From the IMG/VR virus record IMGVR_UViG_3300028800_000057: a stretch of DNA of 64,000 nt; one strand, 5' to 3'. The notes below the pieces were generated by a model. That model was not told where the DNA came from, did no database searches, and was given only the letters and a program-made list of their open reading frames with translations. The translations under genes and the position numbers were made by a program. Positions 33,992 through 34,957 of this stretch are shown here, piece by piece (the stretch's first letter is position 1; every line of letters starts with the position of its first letter). Source of the DNA: a virus. Lineage: Duplodnaviria > Heunggongvirae > Uroviricota > Caudoviricetes.

Positions 33992-34447
33992 TCAAATAAC
34001 CCAAGGGCGCTCGTACCGGCTTAGGATAGGTTCAGCCTCGGATACTTGGAAAACCTTGGGGAGCGGGAACCTCTTGAAGCGCTCGATAGCCTCTGCGATA
34101 AACTGGTTAGATAGTATCACTCTATAGGATAAGGCAATCCCCACCTGCCAAGCCTCCTCGTGAAGTATCACGTGCAAGCAATGCTGCTTCAATGGCTTCA
34201 CCCCACGAACACTGAAGAACTCCTTGAAGTATTCCGTGAGGTGCTCGTATGTGAAGGGCTCGCTAAAGTAGATGGTTTCAATCTCTACTGGATAGCCATA
34301 CTCAACTAAGCACTTCCGATTCGTGAGTGGATCTCCAGGCCTTAACCCAAGCACGTACCCGCCCTCTCCTTCGGACCATCCTGTGAAAATGGCGCGAGTC
34401 CCAATTGACTTTACAGTCCACCTAATGGGAATGTAGTGGGTCGACAT
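33992..34447 (-). CDS. Hypothetical protein with C-terminal RYERPWVI tag
   Basis: Ends ILSRYERPWVI*. Confidence 0.5.
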   Translation of the reverse strand: MSTHYIPIRWTVKSIGTRAIFTGWSEGEGGYVLGLRPGDPLTNRKCLVEYGYPVEIETIYFSEPFTYEHLTEYFKEFFSVRGVKPLKQHCLHVILHEEAWQVGIALSYRVILSNQFIAEAIERFKRFPLPKVFQVSEAEPILSRYERPWVI

Positions 34448-34957
34448 TCAGATCACCCAGGGACGCTCGTACCGATTCAAACGATGAACTGGGGTAGAGT
34501 AGGATCGATCATCAACGAAGATAGTGTCCAACTCGACGCTCTCAAAGTCAGGAGTCAGTACATCTTTCGTGAAACAGAATGCTAAGGTCATACTGAGATG
34601 ATCCCCTCGACGCTCACTGTCTAGAAGCACCACGTAGGTAGTACCTTCATCGAGCCCAAACATATTGAGTCGTTGACCAAAAGCCTCCATGTCCCGAGCA
34701 TGCCTTCTTAGGGAATTGGAGATGATCTGTTCGTTTGGTGCAATAAGTGTGAGTAACGGAATTTGTATTACTCCTTGATTGTCCTCAGACCTAGTAATGT
34801 GATCCCCAGCGTACCACCAGGTGGTTTTAGCACCGCCGATGACTCCAGTATCTCCTTCGAGATTCTTCACCAATACCCAAGTTCCACCCTCGCGAGTGAA
34901 CTTTACTAGATTGTCGGATGAGGATTGGAAAAACCAATACCGAAACTTGGCGGCCAT
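34448..34957 (-). CDS. Hypothetical protein with C-terminal RYERPWVI tag
   Basis: Ends RLNRYERPWVI*; its stop TGA is immediately followed by the ATG of 33992-34447 (TGAATG). Confidence 0.5.
   Translation of the reverse strand: MAAKFRYWFFQSSSDNLVKFTREGGTWVLVKNLEGDTGVIGGAKTTWWYAGDHITRSEDNQGVIQIPLLTLIAPNEQIISNSLRRHARDMEAFGQRLNMFGLDEGTTYVVLLDSERRGDHLSMTLAFCFTKDVLTPDFESVELDTIFVDDRSYSTPVHRLNRYERPWVI

Follow-up and report, generated by a model that had tools for sequence, protein, structure and literature searches.

A stretch of 64,000 nucleotides (hereafter the window) from the IMG/VR virus record IMGVR_UViG_3300028800_000057, assigned to the Caudoviricetes, contains two adjacent genes at 33992-34957 whose products end in the same eight residues, RYERPWVI, and which are located upstream of a gene for a homolog of major vault protein (MVP). 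A first-pass annotation of this DNA had read the shared ending as a cargo tag, and had taken the position of the two genes beside a shell-type gene, as in encapsulin operons, to make that reading more concrete. The analysis described here is centred on this ending (the tail), which is carried by many unrelated proteins of the same phage lineage, and on its relation to MVP.

The tagged gene pair at 33992-34957

The genes and features at the locus are the following, all coordinates being those of the window:

34448-34957 (- strand): first tagged gene, 169 aa, C-terminus RLNRYERPWVI
34451-34483 (- strand): tail codons of the first gene, 11 residues (R-L-N-R-Y-E-R-P-W-V-I)
33992-34447 (- strand): second tagged gene, 151 aa, C-terminus ILSRYERPWVI
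33995-34027 (- strand): tail codons of the second gene, 11 residues (region P-I-L-S-R-Y-E-R-P-W-V-I)
33728-33958 (- strand): CxxC...CxxC open reading frame (ORF) with TTG start, 76 aa, between the tagged pair and MVP
33500-33688 (- strand): untagged acidic gene, 62 aa, always immediately upstream of MVP in relatives
30759-33374 (- strand): MVP homolog, 871 aa, with repeats, shoulder and long cap helix

The 169-aa product ends in HRLNRYERPWVI and the 151-aa product in PILSRYERPWVI. The junction between the two genes is GTGATCTGAATG, in which the TGA stop is followed by the ATG start without any gap (TGAATG). Public gene calls match both proteins (P0048, 169 aa and 100% identical, and the 151-aa product), and the CxxC ORF is absent from them. 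The true start of the MVP homolog is the ATG at 33374, its product being identical to P0001. The first-pass description of the pair is thus accurate: both genes end in RYERPWVI, they are joined by TGAATG, and they lie upstream of the MVP-like gene, in its orientation, with the CxxC ORF and the 62-aa ORF in between.

No Pfam family was matched by the 34448 and 33992 proteins. Among 5.8 billion proteins there are five close homologs of the former and three of the latter, and when 1.84 billion cluster representatives were searched with a HMMER profile, about nine true family members were obtained, all from this lineage; further matches to long FN3 or propeller repeat proteins were dismissed as short, low-complexity alignments. 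Residues ~140-169 of the 34448 protein, which comprise the tail and a linker, are predicted to be disordered. In the AlphaFold2 model of this protein the predicted local distance difference test (pLDDT) is below 40 for the last 30 residues and 58 for the whole model, and it is 35 for the 33992 protein, so both models are too poor to judge whether the pair shares a fold. Orthologs of both genes keep the tail although their bodies drop to 40-57% identity and the linker varies in length. The wider 34448 family includes one member with a P-type tail, TRFERKPVI (a switch from W to P), and one member without tail. The best explanation, and a likely one, is that 34448 and 33992 are ordinary, fast-evolving members of a larger tagged set.

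A modular C-terminal peptide

In a six-frame scan of the window, 16 ORFs were found to end in R-[Y]-x-R-x-x-V-[IV]-stop, against 0.12 in shuffles. In any frame of the window the pattern is always directly before a stop codon and there is no internal copy. The tagged genes are 16 of the ~117 genes (~14%, about one in seven), they span 1.8-48.9 kb on both strands, and most of them are arranged in runs of two to four. A logo built from 69 non-redundant tails has R at -8 and -5 in 100% of them and Y(-7), V(-2) and I(-1) each in at least 97%, followed by E(-6) in 71% and R(-11) in 57%; position -10 is taken by Pro or a hydrophobic residue, -9 by S, T or N and -3 by W or P, and -4 is variable. Upstream of this, between -22 and -12, Pro is the commonest residue at nine of 11 positions. 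The consensus is thus an 11-residue tail, R-hydrophobic-[S/T/N]-R-Y-E-R-x-[W/P]-V-I-COOH, of which RYERPWVI is one form.

The tail is a modular C-terminal peptide under purifying selection at the protein level. It behaves as a peptide and not as a DNA element because its codons vary synonymously, because the bodies that carry it are unrelated and because it is appended to a Tad2-like domain. Paralogous tails use all six Arg, four Val and three Ile codons, and in orthologous tails the synonymous sites differ while the peptide is unchanged. BLASTP of the tail-trimmed bodies gave no similarity among the 16 proteins except for the pair 46173/46421, and the bodies of 97 of the 97 tail-sharing ORF pairs in the window are without BLASTP similarity. 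The ORF 4290-4547 of the relative L005 has a complete Tad2-like domain (35.6 bits, cutoff 25) at residues 3-61, followed by 24 residues that make up linker and tag; the Tad2-like gene of the window (50121-50336, 26.2 bits) stops at the domain boundary and is untagged. Of the features expected of a C-terminal short linear docking motif, conservation of the protein but not of the DNA, fixed position, portability between unrelated proteins and location in a disordered region (low pLDDT of the tail) are present.

These results also bear on the explanation that the tail is no peptide signal, being either a DNA or RNA element at gene ends (a repeat, a Shine-Dalgarno-like GGTGATC or a terminator) or the common end of one paralogous family. 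Some tails do read TGG/CCG GTG ATC TGA TG, which places GGTGATC just before the next start codon, and several W-type proteins look alike by eye, with an I-x-W strand close to the N-terminus and a G-h-x-Y-S strand ahead of the tail. However, GTG ATC is found in only four of the 16 tails, and many tagged genes are not coupled to a gene downstream, as in the convergent pair at 19524-19531; together with the codon diversity this led to the rejection of the nucleic acid element. A single paralogous family, whether made of the pair or of all W-type proteins, was rejected as well, given that BLASTP, jackhmmer and hhalign offer no support (the best hhalign probability is 7%) and that a known, unrelated Tad2-like domain carries the tag. 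Taken as a whole, this explanation is very improbable.

Besides the pair, the tagged genes of the window are the following:

1819-2349 (- strand): tagged gene, ends SRYERPPVI
2349-2696 (- strand): tagged gene, ends NRYEREPVI
15354-15617 (- strand): tagged gene, ends SRYERKPVI
17986-18396 (+ strand): tagged gene, ends SRYTRKPVI
18396-18929 (+ strand): tagged gene, ends SRYERPWVI
18917-19531 (+ strand): tagged gene, ends SRYERPWVI; converges on 19524-19964 with an 8-nt overlap
19524-19964 (- strand): tagged membrane protein with three predicted transmembrane (TM) segments, a basic coiled region and the tail SRYERPPVI
20296-21249 (+ strand): tagged gene, 317 aa, ends TRYHRKPVI
23359-23781 (- strand): tagged Cys-rich protein, ends TRYERKWVI
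25876-26352 (+ strand): tagged gene, ends SRYDRPWVV
46173-46424 (- strand): tagged gene, paralog of 46421-46729, ends TRYERDPVI
46421-46729 (- strand): tagged gene, paralog of 46173-46424, ends SRYERDPVI
48150-48596 (- strand): tagged gene, ends SRYERGWVI
48593-48946 (- strand): tagged gene, ends TRYERKPVI

The tagged proteins have 83-317 aa and nearly all of them are ORFans. Among 44 tagged proteins scanned, only two Pfam families (Tad2-like and a weak DUF2721) and three PHROG families were matched, and helical proteins are represented in the set, as are Cys-rich zinc-ribbon-like proteins, the Tad2-like anti-defence domain and the three-TM protein, whose ortholog in L007 ends in RYERDLVI. At 19506-19552 the convergent tagged genes share 8 nt, the + strand reading GTT ATA TGA and the - strand GTC ATA TAA, and an 11-nt inverted repeat, TCACGGTACGA...TCGTACCGTGA, surrounds the shared stop region because both genes encode SRYERP[W/P]VI. 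An untagged 150-aa protein (46946-47398) ends in ...PMELAIA and by eye has the I-x-W N-terminal and h-G-L-G-Y-T strands in common with several W-type tagged proteins; it is possibly a family member that lost the tag or never had it.

Back-translated tail patterns match only three IMG/VR contigs and four JGI metagenome loci, all of which belong to this lineage and have several tags each. When one genome per species was scanned for 185,579 species, with the PWVI codon pattern only, there was one match, in a Planctomycetia metagenome-assembled genome. This match looks like chance, since it is a single 59-codon ORF (59.5% GC) without similarity to the window and about one match is expected; mimicry of a host motif was rejected, as this was the only candidate in cellular genomes. 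Within IMG/VR, JGI and the species scan the tag is therefore restricted to this huge-phage lineage. A literature search with the motif string returned author surnames only and no description of the tag, and no precedent was found either for such a tag across a phage proteome or for a short tag linked to an MVP homolog.

The window itself is interpreted as a region of a huge phage genome with accessory and regulatory genes, because of its gene content and because an IMG/VR viral contig matches parts of it at 70-82% identity. It encodes two sigma-70 factors, a response-regulator domain, a nucleoside deoxyribosyltransferase, an NAD kinase, an HD/ppGpp-hydrolase-like protein, NT5C and GmrSD_N; its PHROG matches are a tail-fibre family, a weak terminase match and an RNA ligase, and it has no tRNA genes. 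The two sigma-70 family genes (4082-4714 and 8434-9282) and the receiver-domain protein (170-1159) lie within 9 kb. A promoter-like motif, TTGAGAT-N17/18-GCGTAATA, also written TTGAGAT-N17/18-(GCG)TAATA, precedes about ten gene starts with very short leaders, approximately at 7130-7164, 10665-10700, 12072-12105, 14153-14186, 38471-38505, 45320-45352, 54057-54090 and 56750-56782. This motif is probably recognised by one of the sigma factors that the phage itself encodes, and it is found neither before the tagged pair nor before MVP. The intergenic word CTTTGGT was mostly found within coding sequence and was discarded as uninformative.

The MVP homolog and its relation to the tail

The first-pass identification of the MVP-like gene is borne out. 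Its product matches Pfam PF11978 MVP_shoulder (E = 1.2e-10, 41.9 bits, cutoff 25), and the shoulder domain, which is SPFH-like, is present in 47 of 47 homologs. A profile built from 18 homologs matches the rat and human MVP chains 4hl8, 4v60 and 7pkr with E = 1.4e-36, its positions 244-740 being aligned collinearly to MVP residues 280-794 (repeats, shoulder and cap helix). Judged by these matches, 30759-33374 encodes a genuine MVP homolog. P0001 is located on a contig of 443,068 bp and its relatives on contigs of 435 kb and 226 kb. The remaining features around the gene are the following:

34991-35389 (- strand): untagged zinc-ribbon protein, 132 aa, upstream of the tagged pair
33425-33454 (- strand): promoter-like element CTTTAC-N17-TACTCA with upstream GTG, before MVP
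33393-33429 (- strand): perfect 15-bp hairpin in the MVP leader, within the 125-nt gap before MVP
30708-30738 (- strand): terminator-like hairpin of 13 bp, just past the MVP stop codon
30305-30685 (- strand): untagged gene, 126 aa, immediately downstream of MVP in several relatives

The element CTTTAC-N17-TA(C/G)(T/A)C(A/C) with its upstream GTG is kept in four relatives at 55-75 nt before the MVP start, with copies just upstream of the MVP genes in L007, L013 and L014; the sequence that flanks it diverges among relatives while the element stays. It is unique in the window. Because of this conserved and unique element, MVP is probably transcribed from its own promoter, possibly of a distinct class. 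A promoter class common to the tagged clusters and MVP was rejected, the TTGAGAT motif being absent before the tagged pair and before MVP and the MVP-type element not being shared with the clusters. The leader hairpin (dG -27.5 kcal/mol, z = -5.9 against shuffles) is not followed by a T-run, and relatives do not have it in this form; it would fall at the 5' end of a transcript starting from the MVP element.

Upstream of MVP and co-oriented with it there are two tagged genes in the window, two in L017, three in L016, three in L007 and one in L013, that is, one to three in five of six related genomes. In L014 the nearest tagged gene is 3.9 kb from MVP; here MVP is preceded by a 67-aa gene, and this in turn by the zinc-ribbon ortholog, without a tagged gene between the ortholog and MVP. 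The constant flankers of MVP are the untagged 62-aa and 126-aa genes, not the tagged ones. Moreover, the whole MVP neighbourhood, with its HD, NAD kinase and GmrSD_N genes, is syntenic among relatives, and for this reason a conserved order of tagged genes is expected from relatedness alone. Only two of the 16 tagged genes are near MVP; the other 14, which are distributed over both strands, lie at distances of 7-31 kb from it. About 10% of the untagged genes have at least two co-oriented tagged genes among the four genes upstream, and 19% have at least one; the adjacency of tagged genes to MVP has p ~0.1.

MVP-like genes are common in large phages. A search of IMG/VR with the single MVP protein gave no match, and a profile search did find homologs, on 234 viral contigs, many of them of 100-340 kb; a 2023 preprint had reported two. 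These are the gut phages ctOa11 and ct2Ri15, whose MVP homologs lie outside structural modules and have no assigned function, and for which no tag or cargo was described (bioRxiv 10.1101/2023.11.10.566534); they are too distant from the phage MVP described here for a tblastn match. Eighty of the IMG/VR MVP loci (L036-L115, 1.56 Mb) were scanned for tails and no RYER-type tail was found. The few tail-sharing ORF pairs in these loci are mostly tandem paralogs. No comparable shared tail was found near the MVP gene of the 735 kb phage LR756501, and there were no tags at the five cellular MVP loci that came with DNA sequence (L008-L011 and L015, 22 kb each).

A different tail is present in LR756500, a phage of 462 kb and 24% GC with an MVP-like gene of 27% identity. 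About 11 of its ORFs end in ...KYEHLxNADDFGF[FL]DN, with at least three unrelated bodies that include leucine-rich repeat proteins, and by its sequence this ending is a second, independent and lineage-specific terminal tag. Five of the ~11 ORFs are 4-10 kb from the MVP-like gene; when they are counted as clusters, the probability of such proximity by chance is estimated at ~0.25. The tailed ORFs are located at 26369-31802 of L020 (LR756500.1, reverse complement) and at 124308-125090, 197835-199531, 313382-313927, 322544-322996 and 331856-332572 of LR756500.1, and the four near the MVP-like gene that were first examined begin with MK[YF][IL]..Y[EK].F.

The closest cellular MVP homologs are 43-54% identical and belong to genomes of the Candidate Phyla Radiation (CPR)/Uhrbacteria type, where they are placed among ribosomal and translation genes. 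This suggests gene exchange between phage and host, the host being possibly CPR-like. The closest of all, P0019, and the phage relative P0012 were recovered from one sample. At L008-L011 and on the P0019 contig the MVP neighbours are ribosomal proteins, EF-Ts, RF-1 and BipA, and the setting is chromosomal.

In this phage lineage there are many NAD, nucleotide and anti-defence genes around MVP: NAD kinase (38910-39758), HD_4 (37961-38464), GmrSD_N (41194-41715), Tad2-like (50121-50336), nucleoside deoxyribosyltransferase (3237-3884) and NT5C (49123-49737), and L014 adds an ADP-ribosylglycohydrolase and an inosine-uridine nucleoside hydrolase at 810-2708. A 2026 preprint has described an ADP-ribose/NAD pocket in the shoulder of eukaryotic MVP; taken together with these gene neighbours, the phage MVP may have a nucleotide-related role.

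It has to be considered whether the tail is a cargo tag for an MVP-like cage, binding the wall of a vault-like particle so that tagged proteins are enclosed or displayed, the two adjacent genes being dedicated cargo. In its favour, the shell gene encodes an MVP homolog that is genuine and full-length, the format of the tail is that of encapsulin-type cargo-loading peptides, one to three tagged genes precede MVP in the window, L007, L013, L016 and L017, and LR756500 has its own tail partly clustered near MVP. On the other side stand the small proportion of tagged genes near MVP, the lack of an adjacent one in L014, the promoter-like element that the tagged clusters do not share, and the absence of the RYER tail or any comparable tag set from the 80 viral loci, LR756501 and the five cellular loci. 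Besides, the tag is also found on the three-TM protein, which argues against a simple enclosure of all tagged proteins within a closed lumen and is compatible with surface docking or ejection-type proteins. The known cargo of the eukaryotic vault, PARP4, is held by a folded MINT/INT domain of ~160 aa between two MVP chains (bioRxiv 10.64898/2026.05.01.722283); the shell protein of that system is homologous to phage MVP in repeats, shoulder and cap helix, and no folded MVP-interacting (INT/MINT) domain was detected by Pfam in the pair and the 44 tagged proteins.

The MVP cage is consequently considered unlikely, and a vault-like compartment built by MVP and loaded or decorated through R-Y-E-R-x-[W/P]-V-I on dozens of accessory and anti-defence proteins is slightly more doubtful still. 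Of the cargo-tag idea, the part that stands is that the tail behaves as a targeting or docking peptide (strictly C-terminal, with a Pro-rich linker, on unrelated bodies and under selection). The support drawn from adjacency to MVP does not hold in view of the ~10% background, L014 and the separate promoter-like element, and the reading of the pair and MVP as a cargo operon finds no counterpart at the viral and cellular MVP loci scanned. The position of the pair before MVP is probably explained by local synteny in a tag-dense genome, and it does not demonstrate a cargo-shell operon.

Candidate receptors and meaning of the tail

As it is present on about one gene in seven, the tail looks like a general docking tag, and it is probably a lineage-specific docking or sorting peptide that is read by one common receptor. 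According to this proposal, which is built on sequence comparison, the lineage would attach the tail through a flexible, Pro-rich linker to many unrelated small accessory proteins. The exposed tail would then dock into a groove of the receptor, the contacts being made by the V-I pair with its free carboxy-terminus, by the Tyr and by both invariant Arg, so that a large and changeable set of phage proteins would be brought to one place or machine.

Several systems with short terminal signals can be compared with it. Encapsulin cargo-loading peptides are likewise short (~10 aa), C-terminal, preceded by a flexible Pro/Gly-rich linker and carried by unrelated proteins, and in the classic case the cargo gene is directly upstream of the shell gene. 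Their consensus has no resemblance to the tail, so the likeness is one of format only. Unlike in encapsulin systems, the shell candidate is here an MVP homolog and not an HK97-fold protein, and there are 16 tagged genes over 47 kb instead of one to four cargo genes beside the shell; no encapsulin or Linocin family was found among the scanned window genes. Peroxisomal targeting signal 1 (PTS1) and the motifs bound by PDZ and TPR domains are also proteome-wide, strictly C-terminal, portable and hydrophobic at the last residue, and they are read by one receptor. The tail differs from them in being longer, in having two invariant Arg and a Tyr, and in being phage-encoded and lineage-specific, and those systems have a receptor domain of a kind not found in the 64 kb window.

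Three points weigh against this proposal. No PDZ, TPR, protease, chaperone or other peptide-binding domain is detectable in the window, which covers about 15% of the 443 kb genome; in each of the six relatives examined, MVP is preceded at a distance of 0.6-4 kb by a gene of the 34448 family; and no large self-assembling protein other than MVP is recognisable in the window. Owing to the last two points, some probability stays with a link to MVP.

A docking site in the virion has also been considered. The tail would be a packaging signal that docks on the inner capsid, the scaffold or the portal during prohead assembly, and small accessory and anti-defence proteins would be packaged and injected with the DNA. 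The tagged set does consist of small accessory proteins, with a Tad2-like anti-defence domain among them, and so many tagged genes suit a proteome-wide sorting signal better than the cargo of a single operon. Huge phages package dozens of proteins, and the ejection proteins of other phages include some with hydrophobic segments. No structural gene was identified beside the tagged clusters, however, and the capsid-targeting sequence (CTS) of T4, although also a short terminal peptide that directs phage proteins to the prohead, is N-terminal and cleaved. Virion packaging is therefore regarded as possible but improbable, to about the same degree as the MVP cage.

The tail could instead be a degron, a basic and hydrophobic C-terminus read by an AAA+ unfoldase or protease of the host or the phage, which would set the lifetime of the tagged proteins. 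Such a function would suit the tail, whose exposed C-terminus has basic residues ahead of V-I-COOH, and many of the tagged proteins are small accessory proteins to which no function is assigned. The MuA-type C-terminal signal that directs phage proteins to the unfoldase ClpX is RRKKAI, and the tail may have some likeness to ClpX C-motif 2. Nevertheless, with five near-invariant positions over eight residues (two at 100% and three at 97% or more) the tail is stricter than known degrons, the MuA-type signal being looser; neither this signal nor the T4 CTS resembles R-Y-E-R-x-[W/P]-V-I. It would also make little sense to destabilise a sponge-type anti-defence protein, and no protease or adaptor was identified in the window. 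This function is clearly less probable than packaging. Once the small shares of MVP and of the capsid, and the minor one of an unfoldase or protease, are set aside, the remainder falls to another phage or host hub, in the roughly 85% of the genome beyond the window, as the candidate receptor of the docking peptide.

The tail phenomenon is real and experimentally tractable, whereas the inference of a cargo operon is not established. If the partner were the MVP cage, the tail would offer a testable handle on the prokaryotic and viral homologs of the vault, whose function has been open for decades, and a ready-made loading peptide for engineered vault particles; it would also be without known precedent, both as a short cargo-loading peptide of a vault and as a system of sorting signal and compartment encoded by a prokaryotic virus outside the phage nucleus. 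If the partner were the capsid or another hub, the tail would represent a new sorting code by which some 16 or more uncharacterised proteins act at a common site. In either case, a portable C-terminal tag on about one seventh of the genes of the region implies that much of the accessory proteome of this phage is sorted or docked to one partner.

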